A stretch of 55,527 nt of DNA from a virus (IMGVR_UViG_3300046729_000010:1-55527), one strand, 5' to 3'; positions 12,276 through 51,753 are shown, counted from the stretch's first letter. The notes: generated by a model not told the origin, from the sequence alone. Numbers and translations: made by a program.

Positions 12276-12341
12276 TTGACTTCTGAGCCGGAAACGGTGA
12301 GGATGCGTTGCATGAGGTCAATCAACCCCCAGGAGACCAAC
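12276..12341 (+). promoter_or_regulatory. dual-start promoter/leader cassette, copy 1
   Basis: TTGACT-17-GAGGAT-7 nt-ATGAGGTCAA(12312)...CCCCAGGAGACCAAC-ATG(12342). Confidence 0.7.
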
Positions 12342-12512
12342 ATGGCGATCATCGAGCACTTCAACGAGCGCGGTACCTTCACCGGCTGCAGCCTGCAGGA
12401 CGCGGAGTTCAACATCGTCGGCTTCTTCGACACCGTCGGTCAGGCCCTGAGCCACGCCGAGTCCCTCGGCCACAACCAGGACGACATCGCTATCCTCGAG
12501 GATGAGGTCTGA
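12342..12512 (+). CDS. small acidic hypothetical protein (alternative in-frame start 12312)
   Basis: AGGAG RBS; high GC3. Confidence 0.7.
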   Translation: MAIIEHFNERGTFTGCSLQDAEFNIVGFFDTVGQALSHAESLGHNQDDIAILEDEV

Positions 12513-12784
12513 TGACCGAGATCACCTTCGTCGAGGCGACCGAGCCTCTCAAGGGCAAGCGTGCCGCTGTGGTGGCCAGGATGATCGAGCAGATCGTCCA
12601 GGCTGACGGCGAGTGCGTGACGTGGGACGAGCTTATCAACGGTGTCGAACATCCCCACCAGTACACACCCGCGCTGCACGCACTCGAACTCGTGGGCGCC
12701 ATCGAGCGCTGGGAGTTCAGTGAGCCTGGCCATCGGAAGAAGCAGGTTGCGTACTCTCTCCACGCCAACGTGACCGTGGCGTGA
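12512..12784 (+). CDS. winged-HTH-like protein, paralog of the C-terminal domain of 3603..4181
   Basis: TFV..EP.K...IE..ADG..V...EL...L..G alignment by eye; TGATG overlap. Confidence 0.65.
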   Translation: MTEITFVEATEPLKGKRAAVVARMIEQIVQADGECVTWDELINGVEHPHQYTPALHALELVGAIERWEFSEPGHRKKQVAYSLHANVTVA

Positions 12785-13059
12785 TGCTACTCCTCGGCCT
12801 ACAGGTGAAGCAAGAGCTCATCGACCTTGCCGTGGAGCGCGAGTCGGCCGGCCGTCAGGCCAAGGGCGCTGGACCACGACTGCGAGTCGTGTCCGACTAC
12901 GTGGTCCAGATCACCAGGACACGCTATCCGAGCTGCAAGTGCGAAGATCACGGTCTGTTCGCGGGCATGACTTTCGACTCAATGATGCGCCTGACTGGCT
13001 GTCGCGATGGCTGGGTGTGTCCGCGCCTGGACTCCCTCCGACGTGAGATGGGACACTGA
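12781..13059 (+). CDS. hypothetical protein
   Basis: GTGA overlap; CKC..H, C..WVC. Confidence 0.55.
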   Translation: MMLLLGLQVKQELIDLAVERESAGRQAKGAGPRLRVVSDYVVQITRTRYPSCKCEDHGLFAGMTFDSMMRLTGCRDGWVCPRLDSLRREMGH

Positions 13060-13065
13060 GTTTCG

Positions 13066-13320
13066 ATGCCCTGGAGGACGATTGCAGAGGACGCTGTGGA
13101 CAGCGCTGGGAAGCATTGCAGCGTCTGCGGAGAGACGTTGCCACACGTTTGCTCACCTATGCCCATCTACGTCTGCTGTCAGTGCGGCTCTGGAGCAATC
13201 CTAGTTCGGCTCAAGAGCCCGGACGACTCAATGGACCCCAGCGGCAATGACGTGTACTTCTCGTGCGCAGAACACCATGCAGGGACAATCGTGACACCAC
13301 GAGTCTGGCGGTCAGAATGA
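13066..13320 (+). CDS. hypothetical Cys-rich protein
   Basis: CSVC, CCQC, CAEH. Confidence 0.5.
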   Translation: MPWRTIAEDAVDSAGKHCSVCGETLPHVCSPMPIYVCCQCGSGAILVRLKSPDDSMDPSGNDVYFSCAEHHAGTIVTPRVWRSE

Positions 13321-13400
13321 AACAAGTAGCATTCGTATCCGCGCTGGGTGTCCTGGCCTACGGTTCGTTCATGTTCGGGCTCCTCGTCGGGGCCGGGTGA
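13317..13400 (+). CDS. 27-aa membrane peptide
   Basis: MKQVAFVSALGVLAYGSFMFGLLVGAG; ATGA overlap; below the ORF-track cutoff. Confidence 0.4.
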   Translation: MKQVAFVSALGVLAYGSFMFGLLVGAG

Positions 13401-13409
13401 CGATGACAC

Positions 13410-13439
13410 TTGACCCCGACCTCGAGGTGGGTATAGGGT
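13410..13439 (+). promoter_or_regulatory. putative promoter of the recombination/replication operon
   Basis: TTGACC-18-TAGGGT. Confidence 0.5.
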
Positions 13440-13440
13440 G

Positions 13441-13869
13441 ATGGCCTTCCCCGTGCCCTCCTCGAGCAGCCATCCGCACCGCCTTGTTTCCATCGACCCT
13501 GGTCTCTCGACTGGGGTCGCTGTGTTCCTGGACTTGCGGCTGGAGCGATCAATGACCACAGAGGCGCCTCATATCGCGTTGGAGCACCTCTTGATCGAGC
13601 TCGATGGGGGCGCGGTGATCGTTGCAGAGAAGGGTCCCACCAATCACCGTCGCCAAGCCGACGCGTGCGCCCCAGTAGAGGCGCTCATCACACGGCTGGC
13701 GAACCATGTCCACTGGGTAAGGCCTACCGACTGGAAGCTGCATCCGTCCGCCAACCTCGTACTCGGCGATGCGCCGGCCACGAGACACGAGCGTGACGCG
13801 ATTCAGATGGGTCGATGGTTCCTCGCCCGCAGGGGTACACCCGATGGCACCCAAGCCCGAGCTTCCTGA
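13441..13869 (+). CDS. RuvC-like Holliday junction resolvase
   Basis: LVSIDPGLSTGVA...IVAE...PTDWK...HERDA RNase H-fold motifs; start uncertain. Confidence 0.7.
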   Translation: MAFPVPSSSSHPHRLVSIDPGLSTGVAVFLDLRLERSMTTEAPHIALEHLLIELDGGAVIVAEKGPTNHRRQADACAPVEALITRLANHVHWVRPTDWKLHPSANLVLGDAPATRHERDAIQMGRWFLARRGTPDGTQARAS

Positions 13870-15103
13870 CGCACGTCCAGTGATGCATATGTCGCCCCTC
13901 GAGGCGACGAGTCGTCTGTTGGACATCTCGGTCACGGAGCGTGGTGAGTTCCGCACGTGCCGACGCAGGTGGTATCTGAGCACGATCCTGAACCTCCAGT
14001 CCAAGGGCCAAGGAGAGATCGCGCTCTCGTTCGGCACGGCCATCCACTCCGCGCTCGAGATCATCTATCGAGCCGATTTGAGCGATCCTGAGCAGCTCAG
14101 GGCCACGGTCCTGCTCGAGATGCAGGCTTGGAAGGACGTCCAGGCAGGGCTCGATCTAACGCAGTCAGAATGGGAGGAAGTACTCGACCTCGTCGAGCTG
14201 GGCGAGATCATGCTCCACAACTACTTCGCCTACGAGAATAGAGCTCCCGTCAAGCTCGGACGACCCGTTGCGGTGGAGGGCCTGATCCTGGACGAGGATC
14301 GACTCAAGCCCAGCAGACCAGACGGTTACGGACCCTACGCTGAGGTGGTCCGTCACGAGTCCGGCCGGCTCATGGTGCCCATCGTCGATCCCTACACCAA
14401 AGTTCCGATCACGAGTCTGGACGGCATTGCGTACCTGACGGGACGTATTGACGTCCTCACGGAGCGTCTGACACCCAAGCTAGGCCTGTGGGTCGTCGAT
14501 CACAAGTCGGCCGCTACCGCGCCCTCGGACAAGGGTCTGGACTGGGACGATCAAGTGACCGGCTACTGCTACATCGTGTGGCGCTGGTTGGGCATCGTCC
14601 CTCGAGGCGTCATCTTCAACTACCTGATCAAGAACGCGCCGTCAGAGCCGCGGCTGGTCAAGGGCAAGAAGAAGGGCGAAGGTCTCGTCCTCTCCACCGC
14701 GAAGGACCAACAGACCACTCCTGATCTCTACCGTGAAGCTCTCAAGGAGCACGGTCTCATGTCGGGTGGACGAATCACCTCAGAGAAGCATGCGGACTGT
14801 CTCGCAGCCCTCCTGGCCCGAGGCGACGAGCCGTTCTACCGCAGATACGAGGTCACTCGGAACATGGAGCAGCTGCTCTCGTTTGAGCGCCGACTGGTCG
14901 CGGAGCATCGTGACATGACCTTAGCTCGATTCGGACGAGAAGAAGACGAGCTTCTCTATCCCAACCCGCATCGAATGCTCTGCCCGCGCTGCTCGGTGAG
15001 CTCGATCTGCCTCGCGCTGGAAGACGGCAGCGACGTCGAAGACATCATCGACTCTCAGTACGTGACTGGACCTGACCGTAAGGCCATGAAGCTCGAACAA
15101 TAG
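13844..15103 (+). CDS. PD-(D/E)XK (RecB/Cas4-like) exonuclease
   Basis: ISVTE..FRTCRRRW..FGTAIHSALE..GRIDVL..VVDHKSA..Q..GY..CPRCSVSSIC. Confidence 0.85.
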   Translation: MAPKPELPDARPVMHMSPLEATSRLLDISVTERGEFRTCRRRWYLSTILNLQSKGQGEIALSFGTAIHSALEIIYRADLSDPEQLRATVLLEMQAWKDVQAGLDLTQSEWEEVLDLVELGEIMLHNYFAYENRAPVKLGRPVAVEGLILDEDRLKPSRPDGYGPYAEVVRHESGRLMVPIVDPYTKVPITSLDGIAYLTGRIDVLTERLTPKLGLWVVDHKSAATAPSDKGLDWDDQVTGYCYIVWRWLGIVPRGVIFNYLIKNAPSEPRLVKGKKKGEGLVLSTAKDQQTTPDLYREALKEHGLMSGGRITSEKHADCLAALLARGDEPFYRRYEVTRNMEQLLSFERRLVAEHRDMTLARFGREEDELLYPNPHRMLCPRCSVSSICLALEDGSDVEDIIDSQYVTGPDRKAMKLEQ

Positions 15104-15114
15104 GAGGCTGGGGA

Positions 15115-15426
15115 ATGAACGCGACAGAGCTTAGTGAGTGGAGCTCTCAGACGGGAGCAAACGTCACATGGGCGTCCATCGAGGGCGACCGTGTCCAAGT
15201 AACGGTGCGTAAGGGGGACATCACGGCCACGGCAGAGGGCTCGGACGCTCACGACGCAGCAGACAAGGTCATGCCGATCGTGCGCCAACTGATCCCCACA
15301 GCGCCCAGCGGTGAGGCCCAGAGCGGGGTCGAGGGCAGCGTCGTCGACGAGTCGACTCCGGAGCCACTCGATCCGCCACTCGATCCCGAGACGGATCTAC
15401 CAACAGAAGGAACCGAGTCGGCGTGA
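15115..15426 (+). CDS. hypothetical protein
   Basis: GGAGG RBS. Confidence 0.6.
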   Translation: MNATELSEWSSQTGANVTWASIEGDRVQVTVRKGDITATAEGSDAHDAADKVMPIVRQLIPTAPSGEAQSGVEGSVVDESTPEPLDPPLDPETDLPTEGTESA

Positions 15427-15614
15427 CCCCTGAGACGTTCTGGGAGAGGATCGCCGAGGCGACCGAACTTGTTGCACACAAGGGTGCGAAGCGAGTGGAC
15501 GGCCACGGGTTCAAGGTGTACACGATCCCTTCAGGCGTCACGCGTATCGACATCGAGCCAGGTCAAGCCCCAAAGGAGGCAGTTGCAAATGGCCACACAG
15601 ATGTCCGCGGTTGA
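15423..15614 (+). CDS. hypothetical protein
   Basis: GTGA overlap. Confidence 0.55.
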   Translation: MTPETFWERIAEATELVAHKGAKRVDGHGFKVYTIPSGVTRIDIEPGQAPKEAVANGHTDVRG

Positions 15615-15765
15615 GCTCACGCTCAGCCACGACACAAACAAGGAGCTCAAAGCGGGTAAACGCCGCTACTCCGACGGGGAAGGCCACACGGTCTACCTCA
15701 GTGGTCCCGAGGTCGAGCAGCTCGGCAGCGTGGACAAGATCAAGCTGACGATGGAGCCGGCGTGA
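15589..15765 (+). CDS. hypothetical protein
   Basis: AAGGAGG RBS. Confidence 0.6.
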   Translation: MATQMSAVELTLSHDTNKELKAGKRRYSDGEGHTVYLSGPEVEQLGSVDKIKLTMEPA

Positions 15766-16034
15766 TCACGCTTGGCGACAGGTGTCGCGACACGATCACT
15801 GGATTCGAGGGCACTGCCACTGCGCGTTACGAGTTCATCAACGGATGTATCCGGTACAACCTCGAGACAAGTTCGCCCAAGGAGGGCGTGCTCGAGCTCG
15901 TGTTCGACGAGCAGCGCCTCGAGGTGGTCCAGGATGCCACCGAGGAGCCAGTGGTCAAGCGTACGGGTGGGGCCAGGGATCAGCCTGCGGGGGCCAGCTC
16001 CCGAGACGCACCACCCAGGACGGGAGTGCGCTGA
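15762..16034 (+). CDS. phage hypothetical protein (SH3-like)
   Basis: ITLGDRCRDTITGFEGTATAR.EFINGC...FDEQRL, a pattern I recognise from small phage proteins. Confidence 0.7.
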   Translation: MITLGDRCRDTITGFEGTATARYEFINGCIRYNLETSSPKEGVLELVFDEQRLEVVQDATEEPVVKRTGGARDQPAGASSRDAPPRTGVR

Positions 16035-18140: not shown

Positions 18141-18527
18141 ATGAGAGCGACGGTCTGTAAGATCATCGACTTCCCGGCGGCTCACTCCAACCAACACCAC
18201 AGCGGGCACTGCTCCAGAGTTCACGGTCACACGTGGACCCTGGAGCTTCACTGCAGGGGTCCGCTGGTGCAAGATCCGAGATCAGAAGCGTACGGAATGG
18301 TCGTGGACTTTGCCACGATCAAGCGTGCCTACCAGGAGTACGTGGAGCCGCGCGTCGAGCACCAAAACCTGAACGAGACCCTGAACCTTCCGGAGTACAC
18401 GACGGAGCACGTCGCTATGTGGATCTGGCAGCAGCTCCATCCTGTCCTCCCGCAGCTGTACAAGGTGCGGCTGTGGGAGGGCAAGAGTTCGTTTGCTGAA
18501 GTGTGCAACGGGGACCAGATCGCATGA
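18141..18527 (+). CDS. queD: 6-carboxy-5,6,7,8-tetrahydropterin synthase
   Basis: FPAAH...CSRVHGHTW...GMVVDF...HQNLNE..TTEHVA..VRLWE; CxxxHGH motif intact. Confidence 0.9.
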   Translation: MRATVCKIIDFPAAHSNQHHSGHCSRVHGHTWTLELHCRGPLVQDPRSEAYGMVVDFATIKRAYQEYVEPRVEHQNLNETLNLPEYTTEHVAMWIWQQLHPVLPQLYKVRLWEGKSSFAEVCNGDQIA

Positions 18528-19436: not shown

Positions 19437-19537
19437 CCATCGTCATCGATGTGATCGCTGCGGTCATTGGGGCGGTAGGCATCGTCCTGATGGGCGTTGC
19501 TGTCTACCGTGTCTACAAATGGGAAAGACCCAAGTGA
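19433..19537 (+). CDS. 34-aa membrane peptide
   Basis: MTIVIDVIAAVIGAVGIVLMGVAVYRVYKWERPK; overlaps both neighbours. Confidence 0.5.
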   Translation: MTIVIDVIAAVIGAVGIVLMGVAVYRVYKWERPK

Positions 19538-20328
19538 GCGCGATCAGACCAAAGATTCCGTCCTGGCCAGTGATCGAGATGTTCGGCCCCACCGTTCAGG
19601 GCGAAGGTGTGGACCAGGGCGTCGCATGTCACTTCGTTCGATTCGGAGGCTGTGACTACAGGTGTGACTGGTGCGACACTCCCTACGCAGTCTTGCCGAA
19701 TCAGGTGCGCGCCAACTCGACCAAGATGTCCACGGCTGACATCCTGTTGGACCTGGACAGTCGACCCCACGTGCCCTGGGTCGTGCTGTCTGGAGGGAAT
19801 CCGGCGCTGCATGATCTCACCCACCTCGTCCAAACCCTTCACGATCACGACTACCTCGTCGCGGTCGAGACTCAAGGATCGAGGTGGCGCGAGTGGATGA
19901 AGGGCGTGGACAGACTCTGCGTGAGCCCGAAGCCTCCATCGTCCAACGAGCCGAAGTCGAAGATGTCGCAGCTGGCCAGGTTCCTGCAAGAGGGAATGGC
20001 AGCTCGAGAAAGTGGCATGCGACCGTACGAGTGGTTGTTCCTCAAGGTCGTCTGCTTTACCCCGTCAGACCTGGACTACGCAGTCAACATCCGGAAGCAG
20101 CTTTCGGACGCAATGATGTTTCTGTCGGCCGGCAACGATGCTGGAGCAACGGTGGCCTACCCCGGCCGAGAGGACCTGCGGTCGTTGGCGGGCATTCGCA
20201 TGGGCCTGTTGGACCAGGCTCGCTGGCTGACAGAAGAAGTGCTCAAGCGTCCGGAGCTTTGCGCTCAAGACGTCTACATCCAAGCTCAATTCCATACGCT
20301 CCTGTGGGGCAACGGAAGGGGATTCTGA
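19534..20328 (+). CDS. queE: 7-carboxy-7-deazaguanine synthase (radical SAM)
   Basis: EMFGPTVQGEG...FVRFGGCDYRCDWCDT...LSGGNP...VETQGS...VSPKPPSS...QFHTLLWGN; GTG 19534 or ATG 19519. Confidence 0.93.
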   Translation: MSAIRPKIPSWPVIEMFGPTVQGEGVDQGVACHFVRFGGCDYRCDWCDTPYAVLPNQVRANSTKMSTADILLDLDSRPHVPWVVLSGGNPALHDLTHLVQTLHDHDYLVAVETQGSRWREWMKGVDRLCVSPKPPSSNEPKSKMSQLARFLQEGMAARESGMRPYEWLFLKVVCFTPSDLDYAVNIRKQLSDAMMFLSAGNDAGATVAYPGREDLRSLAGIRMGLLDQARWLTEEVLKRPELCAQDVYIQAQFHTLLWGNGRGF

Positions 20329-20970
20329 ATGGCGATCCAGCCCAAGCCTATCGAGCCTGAAGCAGACCTCTGGCCGCAGAGCCGGATCACCCATCACAAG
20401 CGCTTCGTGACTGCGGTTCACAACCAGCTGCGGATCATCGAGGAGTGCGGCCGCGGAGAGGACGTCCGCGCCGGCCTGAAGGAAACTCCACAGCGAGTGG
20501 CCAAGATGTGGCTTGATGAGCTCACATCTGGCTACGCGATCGACGTCGAGAGCCTGTTCAAGGTCTTCGACGACCACGGTGACTACAACGGGATGGTCGT
20601 CCTCAAGGACGTGCCCGTGATGAGCCAGTGCGAACACCACCTCGTACCGTTCGTGGGTTACGCGCACGTGGCCTACTTCCCCGGCGAGCATGTCCTGGGC
20701 CTGTCCAAGATCCCGCGGGTCATCGACGCGTACGCTCGCCGGCTCCAGATCCAGGAGCGCCTCACACAACAGATCCACGACGCGCTCGACAAGTACCTCA
20801 AGCCACGTGGCGTGATCGTCGTCATCGAAGCAGAGCATCTCTGCATGACGCTCCGAGGCGTCCAGCGTCCGGGTACGAAGACCATGACCAGCGCCGTCTC
20901 GGGCATCTTCCGCGACCCCGACGAGTACGCCCGAGCCGAGTTCTTCCAGCTGCTGGCGCGGAGGACCTGA
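20329..20970 (+). CDS. folE: GTP cyclohydrolase I
   Basis: ETPQRVAK...[11 protein letters not shown]...GLSKIPR...[10 protein letters not shown]...[11 protein letters not shown]. Confidence 0.95.
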
Positions 20971-22592: not shown

Positions 22593-23004
22593 ACACAAGT
22601 GGTTCGTGTTCTTGGCCGGCCTGAAGACAGGTGCACCGCTGTGGAGACTCGTCATCCACGACTGGTCCAAGCTCACGCCCGCGGAGTGGGGTCCCTACGT
22701 GCGGACGTTCTACGACAAGAGCCGGAAGCGCCCAGGTGAGTTCGACGCGGCCTGGCTCCACCATCAGCACCGCAACCCGCACCACTGGCAGCACTGGGTT
22801 CTGCGCGAGGACGACGGTGACACAAAGGCGATCCGAATGCCCGACGTCCTGGTGAGAGAGATGGTTGCGGACTGGATGGGCGCCGGACGAGCCATCACCG
22901 GCAAGTGGGACCTCGATGAGTGGTTCGGGGCCAACCGACACAAGATGGTTCTGCATCAGGACACGGAAGAACTCGTCTTTGAACTGGTGCTGGATTACGC
23001 GTGA
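22516..23004 (+). CDS. DUF5662-like HD-type protein
   Basis: RHKWFV...HDWSK...HHQHRNPHHWQHW...EMVADWMGAGRA; alternative start 22555. Confidence 0.75.
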   Translation: MKPHLQYASYVARMKPHLQYASYVARHKWFVFLAGLKTGAPLWRLVIHDWSKLTPAEWGPYVRTFYDKSRKRPGEFDAAWLHHQHRNPHHWQHWVLREDDGDTKAIRMPDVLVREMVADWMGAGRAITGKWDLDEWFGANRHKMVLHQDTEELVFELVLDYA

Positions 23005-25580
23005 CCGACTCCTGCCACTCACAGTGCCGCTCCGGCTGCCCTTGTCCTGGCCCGGAGGTCGTCAGCCGGCACGACAACGCTGAAGTCGCGATCGTTCTCG
23101 ACTGGCCAAGTGAGCAGGAGTCAAAGGCGGACGAGTGGCTGGTGGGCAAACGCGGAGGCGCGTCAGAGCTCCTTCGCACGCTCCTGCTCCACTACGAGAG
23201 CGATCTCGAGAAGCTGTACATCTGTTCCGCGGTCAACTGCAGACCCAATCCCAAGAAGAAGGCGATGCAGAAGAAGGCGATGACCGCGTGTCGCGAGAGG
23301 CTCGTCAACGAGTTGCGCGAAGCCGGCGTCAAGAAAGTGCTGTGCGTTGGCCCTCTCGGGTACGGCGCGCTGACGACATCCAAGGCCCTGCCGGCCATCA
23401 CGAAGGTTCGGGGCCGATGGAAGAAGGCGTTCGGGATGGACGTGATAGCCACGCTCCCTCCCGGGTTCGCGATCGGTGAGCCAGAGTACTTCCGTGACCT
23501 GGCCTACGACGTGCACAAGTTCTTCACGACCGATGGACTGCAGCCAACACCCAACGTTGACCTCTGGGTCCCCGAGACCCTGGAGGAAGTGGACGAGGCG
23601 TTCGAGTTCCTCTACGCCGGACACTCGTTCGTTGCGATGGACCTTGAGACGACTGGCTTCTCACCGATCAGCGAAGTCCCGCTCGCTGTGGGACTCGGAG
23701 TGCTCGAGGGTCCAACGGACGCGACGGTGGTGGCCTTGAGTGAGACGATGCTCGAGTCCAAGAAGGTCTGGCGTCGGATCGAGAAGCTACTCAACGGTCC
23801 GATCGAGACGGTCTTCCACAACGCCAAGTTCGACCTTCAACACCTCAAGCAGCAACTGCTGGAGCACGGTCTCAAGTACGAGCCTCAGGCAATCCACGAC
23901 ACGATGATGCTCAACTACGCGCTCGACGAGCGACCGATGGGCAAGTACAAGTGTCATGGCCTGGAGGCCATCGCTCGCATCCGGTACGACGCACCCGACT
24001 ATGGTATCAAGATGGGCGAGTTCCTCAAGGAGTGGGAGACCGCCACGTCGGAGCATCGCGAAGAGATGCGACTCAAGATGCACACATACATGGCGTTGGA
24101 TGTCTACTACACGGCTCGGCTCTTCCCCGATCTCTACAACGAGTGCCTGGACGAAGACGAGGACCTGCTCGAGCTCTACGACCGTCTGTTCATCCCAGGT
24201 GTCCTGGCTCTGGCCAACGTCGAGCACCACGGCATCCTCCTGGACCGACCGATGTACGAGAAGTCGCGACAAGAGCTCGGTCTCAAGGCCGATGTCATCC
24301 TCAAGCGCATCAGGCAAGCCACGGACAATCCCGAGTTCAACCCCGGCTCGCCGGTCCAGGTGAAGAAGTTCGTCTACGACGAGCTTGGCTTGACCATCGA
24401 CGCAGGCCTGGCCGCAGCCGTGGCCCAGATCACGGACGTCTCGAGCCGCAAGGAGGGCATCAGATCCAGAGGTACGTACACGGACCCAAGCCGCCTCAAG
24501 GTCTCGGCCACAGCGGCTCCGGTGTTGAAGATGATCGCCCGAGGCCATCCGGAGCACCGACAGCTGCTGGACGACATCTGCGAGTGGCGCAATCTCTCAA
24601 AGAACGCGGGCACCTACATCAACGGGTTGCTGCAGCGCTGCGACGTCGACGGACGAGTCCGGGCCACGCTGAACATCCACGGCACCGCTTCTGGCCGGCT
24701 CAGCTCCACGAACCCGAACCTACAGAACCTCCCTCCGGCGAGCCACACGGGCATCGCGGTCAGGTCCGGCTTCCTGGCCCCGCCCGGCTACTCCTTCCTA
24801 GACTGCGACTACAAGCAGCTGGAAGTCCGCATGGCCGGAGAGATGTCTCACGATCCGGCGATGAAGGAGTTGTTCGAGTCCGGTGGTGACCCCCACGCTG
24901 AGACGTCGAAGATCATCTACGGACGATCTGACGTGTCTCACTACGAGCGGATGCTCGGCAAGATCCTGACGTTCGGACTCCTGTACGGCCGCTCACCCAA
25001 CTCCATCGCGACCGGACCCGAAGCTGAGGACATCGTCGCTCGAGGAGGCAAGCGTTGGGGTCCACGCGACGTCCACGAGTTCTTCGACAACCTGCTCAGC
25101 AACTGGGCGGTGTACGCAAAGTGGAGGCAGGGCTGTCGCGAGGCTCCGTACAAGGACGGAGAGATCAAGTTCAGCATCGGACGCAAGAGACGTTTCCACT
25201 TTGTGCCCAAGCACGACGGCGGACACATGGGCCGGCAGGGCATCAACACACCGTGCCAGGGCACCGCGTCCGACTTCTGCCTCTACGCTCTCATCAAGCT
25301 TGACGAAGTGCTCAGGCCCTACCGAGCCCAGGTGGTGGCCACCGTCCACGACTCGTTGCTCGTCGAATGCCACGACGACGATCTCGAGGCTGTGGTGCCA
25401 ATCGTCATCGAGGTCATGGAACGCGACACGCTGTGGAAGACTTACATTCCGCTCAAGGTCGATCTCAAGATCACGAAGCGGTGGGGGCAGGACGACGACG
25501 AGCAGTATGCAGGCACCTCGTCCGCGGACGACAGCCTCGAGCTACTCGAAGCGTCTCTGCGCGAGCACGCCGATGACTAA
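23001..25580 (+). CDS. family A DNA polymerase with N-terminal UDG-like domain and 3'-5' exonuclease
   Basis: Exo DLETTG, FHNAKFD, YMALDV; Pol TASGRLSS..PNLQN, DYKQLEVR, R..GKILTFGLLYG, NTPCQG, TVHDS; N-terminal NCRP..C..ITKVRG. Confidence 0.93.
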   Translation: MTDSCHSQCRSGCPCPGPEVVSRHDNAEVAIVLDWPSEQESKADEWLVGKRGGASELLRTLLLHYESDLEKLYICSAVNCRPNPKKKAMQKKAMTACRERLVNELREAGVKKVLCVGPLGYGALTTSKALPAITKVRGRWKKAFGMDVIATLPPGFAIGEPEYFRDLAYDVHKFFTTDGLQPTPNVDLWVPETLEEVDEAFEFLYAGHSFVAMDLETTGFSPISEVPLAVGLGVLEGPTDATVVALSETMLESKKVWRRIEKLLNGPIETVFHNAKFDLQHLKQQLLEHGLKYEPQAIHDTMMLNYALDERPMGKYKCHGLEAIARIRYDAPDYGIKMGEFLKEWETATSEHREEMRLKMHTYMALDVYYTARLFPDLYNECLDEDEDLLELYDRLFIPGVLALANVEHHGILLDRPMYEKSRQELGLKADVILKRIRQATDNPEFNPGSPVQVKKFVYDELGLTIDAGLAAAVAQITDVSSRKEGIRSRGTYTDPSRLKVSATAAPVLKMIARGHPEHRQLLDDICEWRNLSKNAGTYINGLLQRCDVDGRVRATLNIHGTASGRLSSTNPNLQNLPPASHTGIAVRSGFLAPPGYSFLDCDYKQLEVRMAGEMSHDPAMKELFESGGDPHAETSKIIYGRSDVSHYERMLGKILTFGLLYGRSPNSIATGPEAEDIVARGGKRWGPRDVHEFFDNLLSNWAVYAKWRQGCREAPYKDGEIKFSIGRKRRFHFVPKHDGGHMGRQGINTPCQGTASDFCLYALIKLDEVLRPYRAQVVATVHDSLLVECHDDDLEAVVPIVIEVMERDTLWKTYIPLKVDLKITKRWGQDDDEQYAGTSSADDSLELLEASLREHADD

Positions 25581-25824: not shown

Positions 25825-25853
25825 TTGACCGCACCGGGAAGATTGGATACGGT
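25825..25853 (+). promoter_or_regulatory. putative sigmaA-like promoter
   Basis: TTGACC-17-TACGGT. Confidence 0.6.
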
Positions 25854-25889
25854 TTGACCTCGAATCCAACCCCGAGGAGAACCGACCCT

Positions 25890-26117
25890 ATGCGAGCACT
25901 AGAGCTTCACCAAGAGTTCCTTCGCGATGGCTTCGACATGATCGAGGTCACCTTGAACTCCATCTCAAGCGACGGCACCCCCGTCCTCAAGTGGGTCGTC
26001 GTCATCAGCGAAGGCCTGGTCTGCGAAGGCTCGTTGGCCAAGTCTGAGGGCTGCCTCGAGGCTTGCGTCCGCGACGCGAAGATCGCGTACAAGGCCTTCC
26101 TCCCCCTCTACGGCTGA
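25890..26117 (+). CDS. hypothetical protein
   Basis: GAGGAG RBS. Confidence 0.6.
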   Translation: MRALELHQEFLRDGFDMIEVTLNSISSDGTPVLKWVVVISEGLVCEGSLAKSEGCLEACVRDAKIAYKAFLPLYG

Positions 26118-26125
26118 ATCGTCTG

Positions 26126-26154
26126 TTGACTTGTCCGCGTCGGTCGTAGATGAT
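26126..26154 (+). promoter_or_regulatory. putative sigmaA-like promoter ahead of a ~110 nt segment without an evident gene
   Basis: TTGACT-17-GATGAT. Confidence 0.5.
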
Positions 26155-26270
26155 GCGGACAAGTCCTCTGCGAAGGGGCGCGCGAAGACCGGAGAGACGC
26201 CGGGAGCGACACCACCCCTGCCCTAATCTCAGAGACAGAATGCTGGGGTGCCCAGTCTTGACTCAGATCG

Positions 26271-26338
26271 TTGCCTTGACCGCGTTCAGGGACGATGCTT
26301 CAGCCATGAAGTCAACCACTCACCCCAAGGAGAACACC
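26271..26338 (+). promoter_or_regulatory. dual-start promoter/leader cassette, copy 2
   Basis: TTGCCT-17-GATGCT-6 nt-ATGAAGTCAA(26306)...CCCCAAGGAGAACACC-ATG(26339). Confidence 0.7.
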
Positions 26339-26923
26339 ATGATCACCTTCACCCGCGAGCAGCTCAAGACCGCCTACCTCGTCTGCTTCGACACCTTCGC
26401 TACGGACGCAACTGAGGTCGCCTCCGTCCTCGACGTCAAGCCGGCTGAGGCCACCAAGATCCTCAAGACCGTCGGTCCCCTCCTCGTCTCGGACCACACC
26501 AACGGCGAGCGCAAGCTCACTTGGCAGTGCTACGAGACCTACGACTCGATCACTCGCGATGAGGCCATCGAGCTCTTCGATGCGGCCTTCCCCCTCCCGG
26601 TCGAAGTCGCTGCCGGAGACGACCGCAACCACGCGACGGGTCCGCGCTACACCGACGAGCAGCTGGCTCAGGCCGCTGAGATGCGCAACACCACGGACCT
26701 GAGCTGGGCCGCGATCGCCAAGAGCCTCGGGATCAAGACCCCCTACCGGCTCGCCAAGAAGGTCAAGGCGGCTGGGCTCGAGGTCCGCACCGAGCGGGCC
26801 ACCAAGCCGGCCAAGCAGAACGAGACGGTGGCCCGCCTCGAGACCCTCCTGCGCAAGGCCCTGGCGGAGAAGCGGACGAGCGGCTCGCTCAAGGCCGAGA
26901 TTCGCGTCGAGCTGGGCATCTGA
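26339..26923 (+). CDS. HTH-containing protein (alternative start 26306)
   Basis: DATEVASVLDVKPAEATKILK and LSWAAIAKSLGI HTH-like segments; high GC3. Confidence 0.75.
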   Translation: MITFTREQLKTAYLVCFDTFATDATEVASVLDVKPAEATKILKTVGPLLVSDHTNGERKLTWQCYETYDSITRDEAIELFDAAFPLPVEVAAGDDRNHATGPRYTDEQLAQAAEMRNTTDLSWAAIAKSLGIKTPYRLAKKVKAAGLEVRTERATKPAKQNETVARLETLLRKALAEKRTSGSLKAEIRVELGI

Positions 26924-26941
26924 GAATGTTGAGCCGGCCCG

Positions 26942-27009
26942 TTGCCTTTCGGCAGCGGGTCGGTGAGGATGCACGCATGAGGTCAATCGCAGCCCCCAAG
27001 GAGATCACC
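26942..27009 (+). promoter_or_regulatory. dual-start promoter/leader cassette, copy 3
   Basis: TTGCCT-17-GAGGAT-6 nt-ATGAGGTCAA(26977)...CCCCAAGGAGATCACC-ATG(27010). Confidence 0.7.
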
Positions 27010-27681
27010 ATGAACCGTCGCCGCACCTTCCGCGACAACAGTCCCTACCAGCCCGAACTGGTCCACGGCTCCCGGGCTGTGTGCCAAGAGCACGGCGAGC
27101 CGCAGCCCTGCTCCGCCTGTCAGGTCCTCGAGGGCATCAACGCCCAGGTCGCGCCGGCCAGCGACAAGCAGCAGGCCTTTATCCTGAGCCTTCTCGGCCA
27201 GAAGGACCTGAGCAAGTCCGATAAGCTCGCCGGCGCCACGCCCGCTGAGCTCGAGGCCGCGATCGCAGGCATTCAGACCTCGATCCCGACCCTCTCTAAG
27301 AAGGCGGCCAGCGCTTGGATCGAGCGCCTCCTGGCCATGCCCAACTTGCCCACAGCGGCTCGCGCGGACGGGCCCGATGTTCCGTCTGGTCACTACGCCA
27401 TCCGCACCGACGTGGTCCGCTTCTACAAGGTCGATCGCCCCGAGAAGGGCCGATGGGCCGGATTCACCTTCCTCTCGATCCAGGCGTCGGATGAGCTCCA
27501 CCCGGTCAAGGGCGAGAAGAAGCACGACATCCTCGCGGCGATCGCTGAGGACCCCAAGGCCGCATCCCTGCTCTACGGACTCGAGCTCGGCGTCTGTGGC
27601 GTGTGCTGCCGCACCCTCACCGACGAGACGTCACGCGCCGCGGGCATTGGCCCGGTCTGCCGCGAGAAGATGGGGTGGTAG
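27010..27681 (+). CDS. DUF6011-domain protein (alternative start 26977)
   Basis: C-terminal CGVCCRTLTDETSRAAGIGPVC; ASDKQQAFI; RFYKVDRP..GRWAG. Confidence 0.8.
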   Translation: MNRRRTFRDNSPYQPELVHGSRAVCQEHGEPQPCSACQVLEGINAQVAPASDKQQAFILSLLGQKDLSKSDKLAGATPAELEAAIAGIQTSIPTLSKKAASAWIERLLAMPNLPTAARADGPDVPSGHYAIRTDVVRFYKVDRPEKGRWAGFTFLSIQASDELHPVKGEKKHDILAAIAEDPKAASLLYGLELGVCGVCCRTLTDETSRAAGIGPVCREKMGW

Positions 27682-27683: not shown

Positions 27684-28013
27684 ATGACGACCAATCGATG
27701 GACCATCGGGTTCTGGAGCAACGGCTCCGCGTTCGTTACGGAGTCGCCCGCAAGCCAAATCGCCAAGCGACCAGACTTGCGCGTAGTGGAAGTCGTGCCC
27801 GCCGAGTCGATCGTGTCCACGAATGTCTTTATCGCAACCTGCACCGAGCTCTATCTGGACGGGTCTGACCACGTCGGTCGAATCGGAGTATTCCGCTTCA
27901 AGGAAGATGCCCACCAGGCGATCGTCGAGCACAAGATCAAAGCAGGTCTCGACCCCTACGAGACCGAGTACCCCGATCGGCGCTACGAGATCGAGACCGT
28001 GGCCGTTCGCTAG
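27684..28013 (+). CDS. hypothetical protein
   Basis: Directly follows the DUF6011 gene. Confidence 0.55.
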   Translation: MTTNRWTIGFWSNGSAFVTESPASQIAKRPDLRVVEVVPAESIVSTNVFIATCTELYLDGSDHVGRIGVFRFKEDAHQAIVEHKIKAGLDPYETEYPDRRYEIETVAVR

Positions 28014-28021: not shown

Positions 28022-28089
28022 TTGCCTTGGCCCGCAGCGTTGGATACGCTGCAGGCATGAGGTCAACCGCACAACCCGAGGAGAACAAG
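28022..28089 (+). promoter_or_regulatory. dual-start promoter/leader cassette, copy 4
   Basis: TTGCCT-17-TACGCT-6 nt-ATGAGGTCAA(28057)...CCCGAGGAGAACAAG-ATG(28090). Confidence 0.7.
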
Positions 28090-28227
28090 ATGTTCACCAC
28101 CACTTGCGAGATCGACAGCAACGGAACTCAGAGGACGTGGACGTACGAGACCGAGGCTAAGCAGGAGCGCCACGTCTCAAGCCTGCTCCACCAAGGCTTC
28201 GTCATTCTTGACTTCACCAAGCCCTGA
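28090..28227 (+). CDS. 45-aa hypothetical protein (alternative start 28057)
   Basis: GAGGAG RBS; TGATG coupling to the helicase. Confidence 0.6.
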   Translation: MFTTTCEIDSNGTQRTWTYETEAKQERHVSSLLHQGFVILDFTKP

Positions 28228-30110
28228 TGATCACGTTCAATGGCCAGGACCTGATCGTCCAGCCTCCGCGCTACCCGAGCGAAGAGATCAAGGTTGAGCT
28301 CGGTGGCCGCTGGGACAAGAAGTCGAAGTCCTGGCGCGTCGCCCCAACCTCGCTCAACGTCCTCACCCTCGTCGAGTGGTATGGGGAGTCGATCCTCGAG
28401 GGCGCGCCCGAAGCCGTCCGCGACCTGGCGTTTGAGCCGTGGGGCTTCAAAGGCTTCTCCGAAGACGAGCAGGCCATCGCTGAGGCCCATCCGTCCTGGT
28501 CCACGCTCTACGACTTCCAACACGAGGGCATCGAGTATCTGTTCTGCAATCCCCACGGCGCAGCACTCTGCAACCTTTCCTGGGGTCATGGCAAGGCTGC
28601 AGTCTCCGTCGTCACGACGGACCTGCTCGAGGCCGAGAGGATCCTAGTCCTGGCGCCCCTCACTCTTGCGCCGGCCTGGCGGGGCGAGTTCGAGCGCTGG
28701 TCGGATCGGACACGCGACATCAAACGTGCGGTCGCTGGCGATCGCTCTCCCGGCCCGGAAGTCACGATTGCAAATCACGAAGTGATTCAGGAGGTTGTCC
28801 TCCGCGATGAGCATGGCAAGCTTGTCAAGGGCGATCTCATCGACGACCACGCGGACGAGCTCATCGTCCTGCTGGAAGCCAAGGACAAGCCTTTCCTCAA
28901 GCAGTACGGTCAGTCACTCTACGACGGCGACAAAGACTGGACCACCAACCCTCGGCTCGTGAGCAAGTGGATCAAGCTTGGGCCCACCAAGAAGGATGCA
29001 CGCGACAAGACGGTCCCTTCACGCGAGCGCATCGTCCAGGTCCGTCGTGACTACGCCGAGGTCGACTGGGACGTCATCATCGTGGACGAGTCTGTCCTCC
29101 TAAAGAATCGCAAAGCGGTCAAGGTGGATGTCCTGACCACGCTACGCAAGAAGTCGGACCCCATCGTCATCGAGCTCTCCGGATCTCCGATCACTAAGAC
29201 ACGAGCCGACCTCTACCCGCAGGTGAAGATCGCATATCCACGGGGCTTCGCCAGCTTCTGGCGCTTCGCCAAGTTCTTCTGCGTCGTGGATGAGGGAGGG
29301 TGGGGCTGGACGATCGAGGGTGACCGACCCGACCATGACCCGCACCACTACTTGCGTGATCTCCTGTGGGTCAAGTCCGACATCGACGCTGGCTCGGACC
29401 TGCCCAAGTACATCGAGCAGCCGGTCCTACTCGATCCCCTCCCACAGCAGGCTAAGGCGCTGCAGCAGATGGTTGACAAGTGGATCGTCGAGCTCGAGGA
29501 CTCCCCGCTCGACCGCGTGGAGGCCAGCAACTGGCTTGCGCGCAACACTCGTCTTCAGCAGATCACGTCCAACATGGGCACACTGCCCAAGCCGACCGGT
29601 GGCTTCTACTCTCCGGCGTCCGCTAAGGAAGACTTCCTGCTGCAGCAACTGGCGGAAGGTGAGATCGAGACACCCCTGCTCGTGTGGTCCTGGTACGTCG
29701 AGACGACTCTCTCGATCAGCCGTCGCGTCGCGGCTCAGCATCCGGAGCTCCGAGTGGGCCACATCGTCGGAGCGATGAAGACCGAGGACAAGGACGCCGC
29801 GATCGCTGCCTACCGGGAGGGCGAGCTCGACGTCCTAGTGATGCAGATGGCCACTGGCAAGTTTGGCCACACCTTTACCAACACCAAGACGGTCTTCTAC
29901 CACGACCGCGCGTTTGACTCGGACGCCTACGTCCAGAGCCTCGCACGAGTGCGTCGTATTGGACTCAAGCACCGTCCGGTACTGATCGTCCCCAAGGTGG
30001 TTGGCTCGGCCGATGCACTCATCGATCTGAACCTAGAAGGCAAGCTCGGGAACATGGCCCGCCTCACCAACGCGGACCTGGCCGGCCTGCTGCGAAGCCT
30101 CGGGACTTAG
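28227..30110 (+). CDS. SNF2-like SF2 helicase/ATPase
   Basis: LYDFQHEG, WGHGK, IIVDES, LSGSPI, RLQQI, GHTFT, QSLARVRRIG. Confidence 0.8.
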   Translation: MITFNGQDLIVQPPRYPSEEIKVELGGRWDKKSKSWRVAPTSLNVLTLVEWYGESILEGAPEAVRDLAFEPWGFKGFSEDEQAIAEAHPSWSTLYDFQHEGIEYLFCNPHGAALCNLSWGHGKAAVSVVTTDLLEAERILVLAPLTLAPAWRGEFERWSDRTRDIKRAVAGDRSPGPEVTIANHEVIQEVVLRDEHGKLVKGDLIDDHADELIVLLEAKDKPFLKQYGQSLYDGDKDWTTNPRLVSKWIKLGPTKKDARDKTVPSRERIVQVRRDYAEVDWDVIIVDESVLLKNRKAVKVDVLTTLRKKSDPIVIELSGSPITKTRADLYPQVKIAYPRGFASFWRFAKFFCVVDEGGWGWTIEGDRPDHDPHHYLRDLLWVKSDIDAGSDLPKYIEQPVLLDPLPQQAKALQQMVDKWIVELEDSPLDRVEASNWLARNTRLQQITSNMGTLPKPTGGFYSPASAKEDFLLQQLAEGEIETPLLVWSWYVETTLSISRRVAAQHPELRVGHIVGAMKTEDKDAAIAAYREGELDVLVMQMATGKFGHTFTNTKTVFYHDRAFDSDAYVQSLARVRRIGLKHRPVLIVPKVVGSADALIDLNLEGKLGNMARLTNADLAGLLRSLGT

Positions 30111-48958: not shown

Positions 48959-49965
48959 GCTTGGTCGTCCTCCTGCGTTGAATGGAACTCGAGCACACCC
49001 GCCATAGCGGCAAGGCGACCACGGTCTTCGGCCGTGTACTGGACTCCTTCCGACTCGGCCCCTAGGCCGTTGGTGCTTCCGGTCCGACTGCGACGCTGGA
49101 GTCCGGACACGACGTTCTCGAGAGTGTCGACACGGTCGGCCAGCCCAGCGTCCACAGCGCGCTTGGCTGTCAAGACGCGACCTTCGCCGTAGCCGTTCCT
49201 GACGTCGGCCACGGAGGCTTGGCGCCCGGTTGCGACAGCCTTCACGAACATGCTGTAGAAGTCATCGACGCCCTGCTGCAGCGCCGTTCGGGCTTCCTCG
49301 CTGAGCGGGCTGTAGGGGTTCGTCTCGATCTTGTACTTGCCCGCGGAGATCAGTGTCGGCTTGATGCCCATGAGCTCGAGGGCGCCACTGATGTCTCGAT
49401 GCTCCGTGAAGACTCCGATGGAGCCAACCTCGCCCGAGGGAGTGACGACGATCTCGGTTGCCTGCGACGCGATCCAGTAGGCTGCGGAGGCGATCAGAGT
49501 GTTGGCCACTGCGACGACTGGCTTCTGCTTCGCGGCCGCCGCAACCTCGTCCGCGATCTCGGGAATGAGATCGACGACACCGCCTGGCGAGTCCACGTTG
49601 ATCACGATGGCCCCAATGTCGGGGTTGTTCGCAGCCTCGGCGAGCTGAACCCTGAACGAGCTGATGCTCGAACCGAGACCGAAGATCAGAGCGAACAGTG
49701 ACACGTTGGGAGTGAGCACGCCCTTGAGGTCGATCGTCTGGACCTCACCGTTGATCGCGGGCGGACGACCCCGAGGACGGGCCGCGTCCGCAGCTGCCCG
49801 AAGATCCTCTGACGTGATGTCGAGAGACCTGATCCTGTTCTCGAGACTGGAGAACGAAAGGAAGGTCTCGGGCAAGATCGCCCAGGTGCGAGACTCGAGC
49901 TCGAGAGCCCAAGCGAGATCTGCGATCAACTCCTGAGCTGTTCCGGTTTTCGGGTCGTCTGACAT
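48955..49965 (-). CDS. S49-family prohead protease
   Basis: NVDSPGG; ASAAYWIASQA; GSIGV; ISAGKYK; GLADRV; start at ATG 49965 (MSDDPK). Confidence 0.9.
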   Translation of the reverse strand: MSDDPKTGTAQELIADLAWALELESRTWAILPETFLSFSSLENRIRSLDITSEDLRAAADAARPRGRPPAINGEVQTIDLKGVLTPNVSLFALIFGLGSSISSFRVQLAEAANNPDIGAIVINVDSPGGVVDLIPEIADEVAAAAKQKPVVAVANTLIASAAYWIASQATEIVVTPSGEVGSIGVFTEHRDISGALELMGIKPTLISAGKYKIETNPYSPLSEEARTALQQGVDDFYSMFVKAVATGRQASVADVRNGYGEGRVLTAKRAVDAGLADRVDTLENVVSGLQRRSRTGSTNGLGAESEGVQYTAEDRGRLAAMAGVLEFHSTQEDDQA

Positions 49966-50041
49966 CAGGGCGTCTGTCCTCCATCGTACACCCAACGGCC
50001 CGAGGTCAACACCCAGCCGTGGAAGATTTTTGGATGATCGC

Positions 50042-51463
50042 TCAACGGAACTCCAGCTCGAAGTCTGCATCCTTGGATCGGACGTGAAGACGACGGTGAC
50101 TGGAAGCACCTTGAGAGGGCGTGCTGACTGTGACTGGGGGACGCGCCGGCGTACCGACTGGAACGAGGTTGTTTCCAGGAATGTAGAATGTGTCCATTCC
50201 CGGGTCATCGGATCGAGGCTCGTTGATCTTGGACCGACCCTCGTTTGGAGTGAGCAGAGCCGAACCGATGGCCTCACGCAGAGACTGAATCTCCTTGAGT
50301 CGATCGCCTCGAAGGACGCCCGCGAAGTCGAACTCACAGTAGACGTCCGTCTCTCGCAACAAACCCCGAACGACCTGAGCGTTGATGCACTGCTCGATGA
50401 GAACCAGAGGCGGGCCAAGACACTCGGTGTAGATCATCTCGCGCTGTGTCTCGATGTTGCTGTACGTAGCCTTGTCCAGAATCCCCATCATCGGAGGCGG
50501 GATGAGGTAGACCGCTGCGATCTCGTCGCGAACAATCTTGCGCTGGTCGATCAGCTCCGCCTCCACAGCGGAGTGGCCGACTGGCTTCCAGTCCAGACCC
50601 GGAGGAAGGAGCGCCGGCCGGCCAGCATTCTCCGGTCCGGTGTAGAGCTCCGTGATGTCCTTGCGCAGCTGGCGCATGATGATCTGGCGCTCAGGCTTCT
50701 CGAGCCCCAGGAACGCCTCGCTTGCCGTGACCGCTGAGGGAGGCCTTGCTCCGTTCTTGAAGAGACCGCGCTGGTAGCGCTGTGCGCCATCCTCGATCGA
50801 GAGCGTCACTCCCAGCTGCTGAAGAGGCGACGTCCCGAGATTGCCCACCGGAGACCACCACGCGACATGGATCATGTAGTCGATCGAGACTTCGCGAGCG
50901 AACTGAGCGCTGTCCGTGTCCACCTTGAAGCCCTCGAGCGAGTCCCTCCAGGGACGGATCGGCTGACTGAAGCGCCAGTCTCTGGGCCCGAACTGAATCT
51001 GGCCGCTGGCCCCTTCCTCCACCTCTGTGAGCGAGTTGCCGTGGACCAGCATCGGACCGAGAAGGTTCATCACGAGCCCTGCTTGGTGCCCGCGCTCCCA
51101 AGGGGATATGACCGCTGCGGCCAGAGGATGCTCGTCTTCGCGAAGACGGACACGGGAGTCGTCACCGGTCCGGCGATAGACCTTGAGTGGTACTCGCACC
51201 GCCCACGTGAGCATCCGCATCACCGCGGCTGCGACCCAAGGCTGAGTCTGGAACAGACGAGTGTAGGAGACGGTGTGGTTGTCAACGAGCAGGAGCTCCT
51301 GGGGAAAGAGCTCGCCGTCTCCCAGCCACGTCGAGCTGGTTCGAGTGAGGTCCCCTCGACCGGGAGCGACCTCTACGGGGTGGTTGAACAAGTCGCCCCG
51401 ACGCTCGGCTCGACCTTCCTCGAGCCTGGCAATCCTCTCGGCGCGCTGGGCATCAGTCTCCAC
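50042..51463 (-). CDS. portal protein (HK97 family)
   Basis: VPLKVYR; HGNS; GTSPL; FKNGARP; YTGPENAG; ATYSNIE; LTPNEGR. Confidence 0.93.
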   Translation of the reverse strand: METDAQRAERIARLEEGRAERRGDLFNHPVEVAPGRGDLTRTSSTWLGDGELFPQELLLVDNHTVSYTRLFQTQPWVAAAVMRMLTWAVRVPLKVYRRTGDDSRVRLREDEHPLAAAVISPWERGHQAGLVMNLLGPMLVHGNSLTEVEEGASGQIQFGPRDWRFSQPIRPWRDSLEGFKVDTDSAQFAREVSIDYMIHVAWWSPVGNLGTSPLQQLGVTLSIEDGAQRYQRGLFKNGARPPSAVTASEAFLGLEKPERQIIMRQLRKDITELYTGPENAGRPALLPPGLDWKPVGHSAVEAELIDQRKIVRDEIAAVYLIPPPMMGILDKATYSNIETQREMIYTECLGPPLVLIEQCINAQVVRGLLRETDVYCEFDFAGVLRGDRLKEIQSLREAIGSALLTPNEGRSKINEPRSDDPGMDTFYIPGNNLVPVGTPARPPVTVSTPSQGASSHRRLHVRSKDADFELEFR

Positions 51464-51537
51464 GGACCCTCAGCCTACCCCGGATCCGTGCGTCCACACA
51501 AGCTCCGGAGTTGAATCTAAAGATTCGTAGCGGACTG

Positions 51538-51606
51538 TTGCCTTCGTCGTCGTTTGGCCTGATGATGCATCGCATGAGGTCAACCAGCCGCACCAAGGAG
51601 AGCACA
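51538..51606 (+). promoter_or_regulatory. dual-start promoter/leader cassette, copy 5
   Basis: TTGCCT-17-GATGAT-7 nt-ATGAGGTCAA(51574)...CACCAAGGAGAGCACA-ATG(51607). Confidence 0.7.
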
Positions 51607-51753
51607 ATGAGCCAGAACAACGTGAACCTCGAGACGCGCCCCGACTTTGTCCCACGCACAAAGCTTCCGGAGTGGGACTACTCGCTCAGCACCTGGGCCA
51701 ACACCGCGATCCGTCTCTCCGCCCAGGCCGAGATTGATCAGCAGGCCAGCTGA
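51607..51753 (+). CDS. 48-aa hypothetical protein (alternative start 51574)
   Basis: AAGGAG RBS. Confidence 0.65.
   Translation: MSQNNVNLETRPDFVPRTKLPEWDYSLSTWANTAIRLSAQAEIDQQAS

Follow-up and report, generated by a model that had tools for sequence, protein, structure and literature searches.

The 55,527-base whole virus record IMGVR_UViG_3300046729_000010, from a soil phage (62% G + C; called the window below) carries on its plus strand five copies of a short promoter-leader cassette. In each copy an ATG stands where transcription is predicted to begin, in frame with a second ATG that is led by a Shine-Dalgarno (SD) sequence. With moderate confidence we read the cassettes as early promoters whose mRNA would start at or next to the first AUG, with ribosomes entering both leaderlessly and via the SD. 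We infer translation of the first ATG from the reading frame, which is kept in all eight ATG-bearing cassettes found in three phages.

An earlier reading of the same sequence (the first-pass annotation) had listed the five ATG pairs, their spacings, the stop-free frame between them and the encoded peptides, and all of these were confirmed, as was the layout it had described. Each cassette consists of TTG(A/C)CT, exactly 17 nt, a -10 hexamer whose second base is A and whose sixth is T, a gap of 6 nt (three cassettes) or 7 nt (two), a 12-nt ATG box reading ATGA(G/A)GTCAA(C/T)C, a middle of 10 nt (four copies) or 7 nt (one copy), AGGAGA, 5 nt and the second ATG. All cassettes lie within short gaps behind the preceding gene.

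Cassette 1 (12276–12344) has its -35 element at 12276–12281, its -10 at 12299–12304, the box at 12312–12323 and the SD at 12331–12336. Its ATGs at 12312 and 12342 are 30 nt apart, the leader encodes MRSINPQETN, and a gene of 56 aa without a family follows (12342–12512). In the other four cassettes the spacing is 33 nt. Cassette 2 (26271–26341; -35 26271–26276, -10 26294–26299, box 26306–26317, SD 26328–26333, ATGs at 26306 and 26339, leader MKSTTHPKENT) precedes a 194-aa gene, also without a family (26339–26923). Cassette 3 (26942–27012; -35 26942–26947, -10 26965–26970, box 26977–26988, SD 26999–27004, ATGs at 26977 and 27010, leader MRSIAAPKEIT) leads a DUF6011 / phrog_636 gene (27010–27681), and the same gene is cassette-led in the two relatives described below, L005 and G003. 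Behind cassette 4 (28022–28092; -35 28022–28027, -10 28045–28050, box 28057–28068, SD 28079–28084, ATGs at 28057 and 28090, leader MRSTAQPEENK) lie a 45-aa gene (28090–28227) and then a helicase (28227–30110), both on the plus strand. Cassette 5 (51538–51609; -35 51538–51543, -10 51561–51566, box 51574–51585, SD 51596–51601, ATGs at 51574 and 51607, leader MRSTSRTKEST) drives a 48-aa gene (51607–51753) and points away from the portal gene.

The repetition exceeds what is seen in shuffled sequence. The 12-mer ATGARGTCAAYC, searched on both strands with at most one mismatch, gave five matches, all on the plus strand and all within cassettes; in shuffled sequence the mean was 0.66, and none of 100 shuffles reached five. 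A profile built from seven copies (the five cassettes and two that lack the first ATG) recovered the same seven from the window (E 1e-16 to 1e-11), followed by two matches to the promoter part alone, at 3502 (E 0.15) and 26122 (E 1.1); none of 170 other loci gave a comparable match.

Conservation among the five cassettes is block-wise. Mean pairwise identity was 0.93 for the -35, 0.70 for the -10, 0.92 for the ATG box and 1.00 for the SD; for the 17-nt spacer it was 0.30, for the 6–7 nt behind the -10 0.50, for the middle 0.50, for the stretch between SD and ATG 0.56 and for the first 30 nt of the gene 0.36. This pattern indicates that the four blocks (-35, -10, ATG box and SD) are under selection and that the intervening stretches are near random. 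Because conservation is patchy and the spacers are near random, the cassettes appear to be old and not recent duplicates. The five-copy layout and the block-wise conservation thus support the proposal of the first-pass annotation that this is a reused promoter-leader module.

Several features suggest that the cassettes are promoters with the geometry of a housekeeping sigma factor. The spacer between -35 and -10 is 17 nt in all five, and both hexamers are conserved against random spacers. In a check against TANNNT, A2 and T6 were present in 5/5 window copies and T1 in 1/5; in L005 and G003 the hexamer fits TANNNT completely (TATCAT, TATGAT), with 7 nt between it and the ATG. What favours the promoter call is that these relatives, in front of the same gene, show TATCAT or TATGAT in the corresponding position. 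In all eight cassettes the first ATG has its A 6–7 nt past the -10, and in the five window copies a C precedes this purine. In Mycobacterium tuberculosis the -10 TANNNT is centred 7–12 bp before the transcription start and 85% of starts are purines (PMC3898074). On this geometry transcription most likely begins at, or within 1–2 bases of, the A of the first ATG, which is the predicted start used here.

The second start is equally regular. In the window it reads AGGAGA, 5 nt, ATG in 5/5 cassettes, and in L005 and G003 it reads AGGAGC followed by 4–6 nt. The orthologues P0122, P0123 and P0127 begin at the SD-led Met, which is uninformative on the upstream ATG. The leaders are A + C-rich (A + C content 0.64–0.76), and 6 of the 7 tested (the five with and the two without the first ATG) fold no better than shuffles; z-scores for the five cassettes were +1.53, +0.61, +0.73, -0.99 and +0.66. 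A structured RNA leader was considered and rejected: the folds are unlike a stable structure, and no Rfam family matched at gathering score over the whole window. Being unstructured and A + C-rich, the leaders would suit both routes of initiation.

Two further readings were tried and rejected. The in-frame open stretch upstream of the first ATGs has a GC3 of 0.62–0.72, against 0.80–0.91 in genes. A gene reading through the cassettes does not fit, as the G + C by codon position upstream is not coding-like and a separate gene ends at 28013; a conserved peptide spanning the promoter region does not fit either, as the frame of the -35 differs among the copies. For the DUF6011 gene, the protein database holds a 251-aa product from an ATG at 26926 that reads through the promoter (26926–27681); the start backed by orthologues is 27010, and the long form would start at 26977.

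The first-pass annotation had proposed that related phage contigs be scanned with a motif model for ATG–ATG spacings in multiples of three. No DNA match was found in the phage collection, where protein matches stayed below 60% identity, and searches of loci with single proteins found nothing close. Polymerase homologues of 60–78% identity exist in Logan assemblies. An alignment search with the polymerase gave 160 loci (among them L005), and one with the DUF6011 protein gave 80 viral loci, one of which lies in G003. The searches that yielded the L005 and G003 cassettes imposed no frame condition. L005 is a metagenome contig whose polymerase is 54% identical to that of the window; in the part of the record that was searched, it has one cassette, directly behind the polymerase and before a DUF6011 gene, with a spacing of 33 nt. 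G003 is a complete phage of 50,925 bp with terminal repeats, sharing 12 open reading frames (ORFs) with the window at 22–46% protein identity. It carries two window-type cassettes with spacings of 27 and 30 nt, one before the DUF6011 gene and the other before a small gene preceding the helicase, which is the position of the 28022 cassette in the window.

All eight ATG-bearing cassettes from the three phages are in frame and stop-free (window 30, 33, 33, 33 and 33 nt; L005 33 nt; G003 27 and 30 nt). They represent five layouts of box, middle, SD and spacer (12/10/6/5, 12/7/6/5, 14/7/6/6, 12/5/6/4 and 12/8/6/4 nt); as all five are in frame, length differences of 1, 2 or 5 nt in a block are offset in another. 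The two ATG-less copies of the window, described next, are both out of frame. The first-pass annotation had allowed that shared ancestry of the copies might account for part of the frame conservation. This holds insofar as copies within one genome resemble each other; eight of eight in frame over five layouts, with both ATG-less copies out of frame, go beyond an easy account by ancestry.

Other searches for cassettes returned nothing further. With one cassette as query, blastn gave chance matches only. The cassette pattern had three matches in IMG/VR, all low-GC chance matches, and seven in genome_contigs, about the chance level, of which the one in Nesterenkonia has in-frame stops; a looser IMG/VR pattern gave more than 111 matches, all chance or coding sequence. 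A G003-type pattern found 64 stretches, only G003's own two being real, and the polymerase alignment retrieved only cellular polymerases (24–31% identity) from genome_contigs.

The two related copies without the first ATG were present where the first-pass annotation had placed them. The copy at 4271–4341 (plus strand) has CAG for ATG, an 18-nt spacer between -35 and -10, 6 nt between SD and ATG, and an equivalent spacing of 31 nt; the gene behind it starts at 4339 and has a lipoprotein-like signal. The copy at 8253–8323 (plus strand) has GCG for ATG, likewise 6 nt between SD and ATG, and an equivalent spacing of 34 nt; it is followed by a DUF2786 gene (8321–9106, plus strand). These spacings were counted from the aligned box position to the gene start. 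In both copies the 6-nt SD spacer is uncompensated elsewhere, which puts them out of frame.

Looser copies and promoter-like sites also lie on the plus strand. An ATG-less promoter-leader copy at 25825–25893 precedes a gene at 25891. Directly after its -10 the 7-mer of the box is found inverted (TTGACCT, 25854–25860), and the ATG box resembles the reverse complement of the -35 element. An antisense promoter from this inverted -35-like box was considered and rejected, as no -10 follows. Another ATG-less copy at 3506–3605 has a longer leader and keeps TCAACC just before the SD. An E. coli-consensus scan (at least 4/6 in each hexamer and 9/12 overall) passed only two sites on the strand of the early genes. 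The first, at 6422–6507, leads to an SD-led start at 6505 and lacks the ATG box. The second, at 26126–26154, reads TTGACT, 17 nt, GATGAT, and about 110 nt that hold no ORF separate it from cassette 2; the fold of 26126–26270 (z +0.93) is no better than shuffles. This region may encode a small RNA or act as a tandem promoter.

Behind the polymerase, two other relatives have genes that start leaderlessly by position. L006 has a consensus -35, 17 nt, TATATT, 6 nt and the ATG of a 64-codon ORF without an SD (2422–2616). L007 has TATCGT, 8 nt and then ATGAGATCA, which opens a typical signal peptide and is also without an SD (2816–3376); the product of 186 aa has a Transglycosylase-like domain (E 9.7e-19), and the first bases of the gene are nearly those of the window ATG box. 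Because genes in L006 and L007 start 6–8 nt past a -10 without an SD, this phage group appears to use leaderless geometry, and the distance from -10 to ATG in the cassette is, by this comparison, the one used for real gene starts in the group. When a leaderless gene is taken as one whose sole start is an RTG at +1, with neither leader nor SD, the L006 and L007 genes would belong to the class; the cassettes, with their SD-led ATG 27–33 nt further on, do not.

In the favoured reading, the cassette would be a repeated promoter of early and replication genes, joined to a short, unstructured, A + C-rich leader with a strong SD. The mRNA would carry a 5'-terminal AUG plus the SD-led AUG 27–33 nt further on, both of which ribosomes would use for initiation if the host translates leaderless mRNA. 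Since the starts are in frame and the leader is stop-free, both routes would give the same protein, with or without 9–11 extra residues. Selection would keep the frame, as ribosomes that started at an out-of-frame 5' AUG would cross the SD and the gene start out of register. The added residues are probably tolerated rather than functional; the likely gain is that ribosomes can load by a second route or that the 5' end is protected. A stronger form of this reading can be put forward only tentatively: a portable phage module with two ribosome entries, whose starts are held in frame by selection over deep divergence and which would sustain translation of the replication genes while, during infection, the phage or a host defence alters the state of ribosomes or initiation factors. 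If true, it would give evolutionary evidence, the first of its kind, that leadered mRNAs make use of an in-frame AUG at the 5' end and that selection acts on it.

Several observations weigh against the dual-entry reading. The E. coli-consensus scan calls none of the five cassettes; the -10 hexamers match TATAAT at 3–4 of 6 positions, and four of the five begin with G. The host is only presumed to be actinobacterial. No RNA run holding the window sequence was found. The sole sequencing run that matched was soil DNA (X1, share 0.07), in which short, low-depth pieces, among them 28046–28196, are identical to the window, adding neither variation nor transcript ends. Cassettes within a genome are more alike than cassettes at the same position across phages, which makes their independence doubtful. 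Over four comparisons (within the window, within G003, window–G003 and window–L005), the frame rule would arise by chance with a probability of about 0.01 at a rate of 1/3 and about 0.06 at a background near 1/2, these being our own estimates from a small sample, with no formal test. We regard the frame rule as suggestive to moderately strong on these sequences.

The box itself is conserved as nucleotides and not as codons. Within the window it varies at two sites, both of them second codon positions; in L005 the frame across its TCAAYC part is another one, and the leader peptides differ between phages. The nucleotide-level conservation argues that something other than coding keeps the box, and together these points make a functional M(R/K)S(T/I) tag, which the first-pass annotation had offered as one use of a longer isoform, unlikely.

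Also on the opposing side is a motif in distant relatives. In 27 consensus promoters, taken from up to 500 nt upstream of a DUF6011 match in distant viral contigs (63–75% G + C), RTSAG stands 6–7 nt past the -10. A stricter pattern recovered 24 such leaders, 21 of them distinct: 11 with GTCAG, 4 with ATCAG, 2 with GTAAG and 4 with GTGAG. Thus 17 of the 21 have no start codon there (GTC, ATC or GTA), and of the four with GTG, two are in frame (39 and 39 nt) and two are out (43 and 34 nt). As 9 of the 17 leaders without a start codon are also multiples of three, the chance rate of in-frame spacing may exceed 1/3. RTSAG being mostly without a start codon and following no frame rule, a start-region motif independent of translation appears to exist, and the window ATGAG looks like a variant of it. 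Unlike the window leaders, the RTSAG leaders carry G + C-rich hairpins. Among the viral contigs L389–L441, many high-GC phage contigs show, upstream of DUF6011 genes, a near-consensus promoter (TTGACA, 17 nt, TAATGT), then 6–7 nt and RTSAG, often with a G + C-rich hairpin after it. The two lines of evidence, RTSAG and frame, are compatible: an old start-region motif would have become AUG in this lineage, and the frame would then have come under selection, given a host able to translate leaderless messages.

The main rival, which we consider fairly unlikely, gives the box a purely transcriptional role, as a start-region or initial-transcribed motif or as a site over +1 for a regulator of the phage or the host. 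The ATG would be accidental, only the SD-led start would be used, and the frame rule would come from small numbers and relatedness. It is favoured by the conservation of the box at the nucleotide level, with variation at second codon positions and TCAAYC out of register in L005; by the RTSAG leaders, 17 of 21 lacking a start codon and the four GTGs being split evenly; by the inverted 7-mer in the 25825 copy and the likeness of the box to the reverse complement of the -35; and by the ATG-less copies, which drive genes with the same SD. Against it stand the eight in-frame cassettes of five layouts with compensating lengths, while the two ATG-less copies are out of frame. The box is, moreover, confined to cassettes, unlike operator sites, which are scattered over a genome, and a scan of 33 window proteins, many other ORFs being outside it, showed neither a repressor nor an integrase family.

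Two other explanations seem improbable to us. The box may be an RNA-level target through which a phage factor, for instance a translational repressor or a nuclease, switches early messages off together, either alone or on top of a dual start; the T4 regulators of early mRNA, RegA and RegB, are the comparison. A box common to unrelated early genes, at the very 5' end of the predicted RNA, single-stranded in predicted folds and conserved as nucleotides, would suit such a factor. However, no such factor was identified, the window has no Rfam match and the frame rule would be left unexplained. An equally slight chance is given to the absence of any present function, the ancestral cassette having chanced on an in-frame ATG that its copies inherited. 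The 33-nt layout shared by four of the five window copies and the likeness of copies within a genome agree with inheritance, but the spacers, at an identity of 0.30, are at the random level, so the copies are old. The ATG is also unchanged in 8/8 cassettes of three phages whose shared proteins are 22–54% identical, and the length changes keep the frame. Of the readings considered, dual entry by the 5' AUG and the SD is retained as the favoured one. If the dual start proves false, the ATG box would be a strongly conserved element at early phage transcript starts, still needing explanation.

The minus strand of the window holds portal, tail sheath, large terminase and primase genes, and the plus strand, from about 3.5 to 31.5 kb, a long block for replication and nucleotide metabolism. 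This block includes a family A polymerase with an N-terminal uracil-DNA glycosylase (UDG) domain, a PD-(D/E)XK nuclease and a helicase, and also holds GTP cyclohydrolase I, PTPS and radical SAM genes. Because the nearest named protein matches are phages of actinobacterial genera (Arthrobacter, Mycobacterium, Gordonia and Skermania, all below 60% identity), an actinobacterial host is presumed. No tRNA genes were found in the window.

The PTPS/QueD-like gene lies at 18141–18527 (E 1.3e-28), the GTP cyclohydrolase I match has an E of 2.2e-64, and the radical SAM/QueE-like match is weak (E 6.8e-6, below the Pfam cut-off; region of the gene pair 19519–20328 and 20329–20970). This set for a 7-deazaguanine precursor (18141–18527, 19519–20328 and 20329–20970) suggests that the phage modifies guanine in its own DNA. 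In the polymerase gene (23001–25580) the N-terminal domain belongs to the uracil-DNA glycosylase superfamily, and the fusion is common to many metagenomic homologues. The portal gene (51463, minus strand) has a GTG start 8 nt past a -10-like TAGGCT and an in-frame stop three codons upstream, and may itself be leaderless; its start region (51463, 51464–51537) is oriented away from cassette 5.

Both modes of initiation proposed for the cassette have precedents, and leaderless starts are common in Actinobacteria. In E. coli, mRNAs that have an SD as well as a 5'-terminal AUG can be read by either route; the 5' AUG binds 70S ribosomes and can be translated (PMC4965119). These dual mRNAs (Beck, Fleming, Janssen 2016, PMC4965119) are like the cassette in having an AUG at or within 2 nt of the 5' end and an SD-led start, the 5' end being predicted in the case of the cassette. 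They are scattered host genes, the cases studied were chosen out of frame, and the in-frame class, which 'could produce longer isoforms', was set aside. The phage starts differ in being in frame, in belonging to a repeated promoter module and in keeping the frame across three phages.

For initiation in mycobacteria, a 5'-end ATG or GTG is both necessary and sufficient, as was shown with a reporter that had codons at +1 and +30 in the same frame (PMC4633059). Mycobacterial leaderless genes resemble the cassette in the order -10, 6–7 nt, ATG or GTG at +1 (predicted for the cassette; PMC4633059, PMC3898074). Shell et al. 2015 (PMC4633059) listed in-frame leaderless RTGs upstream of annotated starts, 26 in a strict set and 99 in a wider one. 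In those studies the upstream start is read as the true start and as a correction of annotation (PMC4633059; Cortes et al. 2013, PMC3898074), whereas the cassette has a strong, fully conserved SD with its own ATG 27–33 nt downstream, and the ATG-less copies use the SD start alone. Translation from the 5' AUG is plausible because such initiation has been published for both mycobacteria and E. coli.

Among phages, the closest parallels are the Start Associated Sequences (SAS) and extended SAS of actinobacteriophages (Cluster K, EF) and the repeats of clusters EC, EG, EI and O (PMC3203893, PMC7302621). Like the cassette, they are short and asymmetric, occur in one orientation before unrelated non-structural genes, lie at or contain the ribosome binding site and are conserved among related phages. 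SAS has a 13-bp consensus 3–7 bp before the start, and the extended form has a 17-bp inverted repeat upstream (PMC3203893, PMC7302621). The cassette has a different sequence, lacks the 17-bp inverted repeat and combines full -35/-10 geometry with an ATG at the predicted start; no frame relation is described for SAS-type motifs in the available texts of these papers. Cluster A stoperators differ in another way, being many asymmetric sites spread over the genome that work with an immunity repressor; the cassette box occurs only in the five cassettes, and no repressor was seen among the 33 proteins scanned. When transcribed from PRE, the lambda cI mRNA is leadered. From PRM it is leaderless, and of the two proteins of Shigella virF the shorter is made from a leaderless mRNA (PMC10491246, PMC5101355). 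Both cI and virF are like the cassette in that leaderless and SD-led initiation serve one gene, or two protein forms; they do so with two transcripts from two promoters, whereas in the cassette one transcript would carry both starts.

In keeping with the first-pass annotation, no description of such a phage module was found in the literature searched, the papers' supplementary tables being outside the search. Earlier work has left the combination of an in-frame 5' AUG with an SD out of consideration or has taken it for a mistake in annotation. In the present case five repeats of it in one phage, and a frame that two distant relatives retain through changes in internal length, are comparative evidence that the 5' AUG matters. 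If the reading is right, the cassette would be useful in three ways: as a compact natural system in which to study two initiation routes on a single mRNA, as a guide to annotating phage gene starts and as a ready-made expression part for actinobacterial hosts. In its elements the cassette is a variation on the known mRNAs that have a 5'-terminal AUG or are leaderless.

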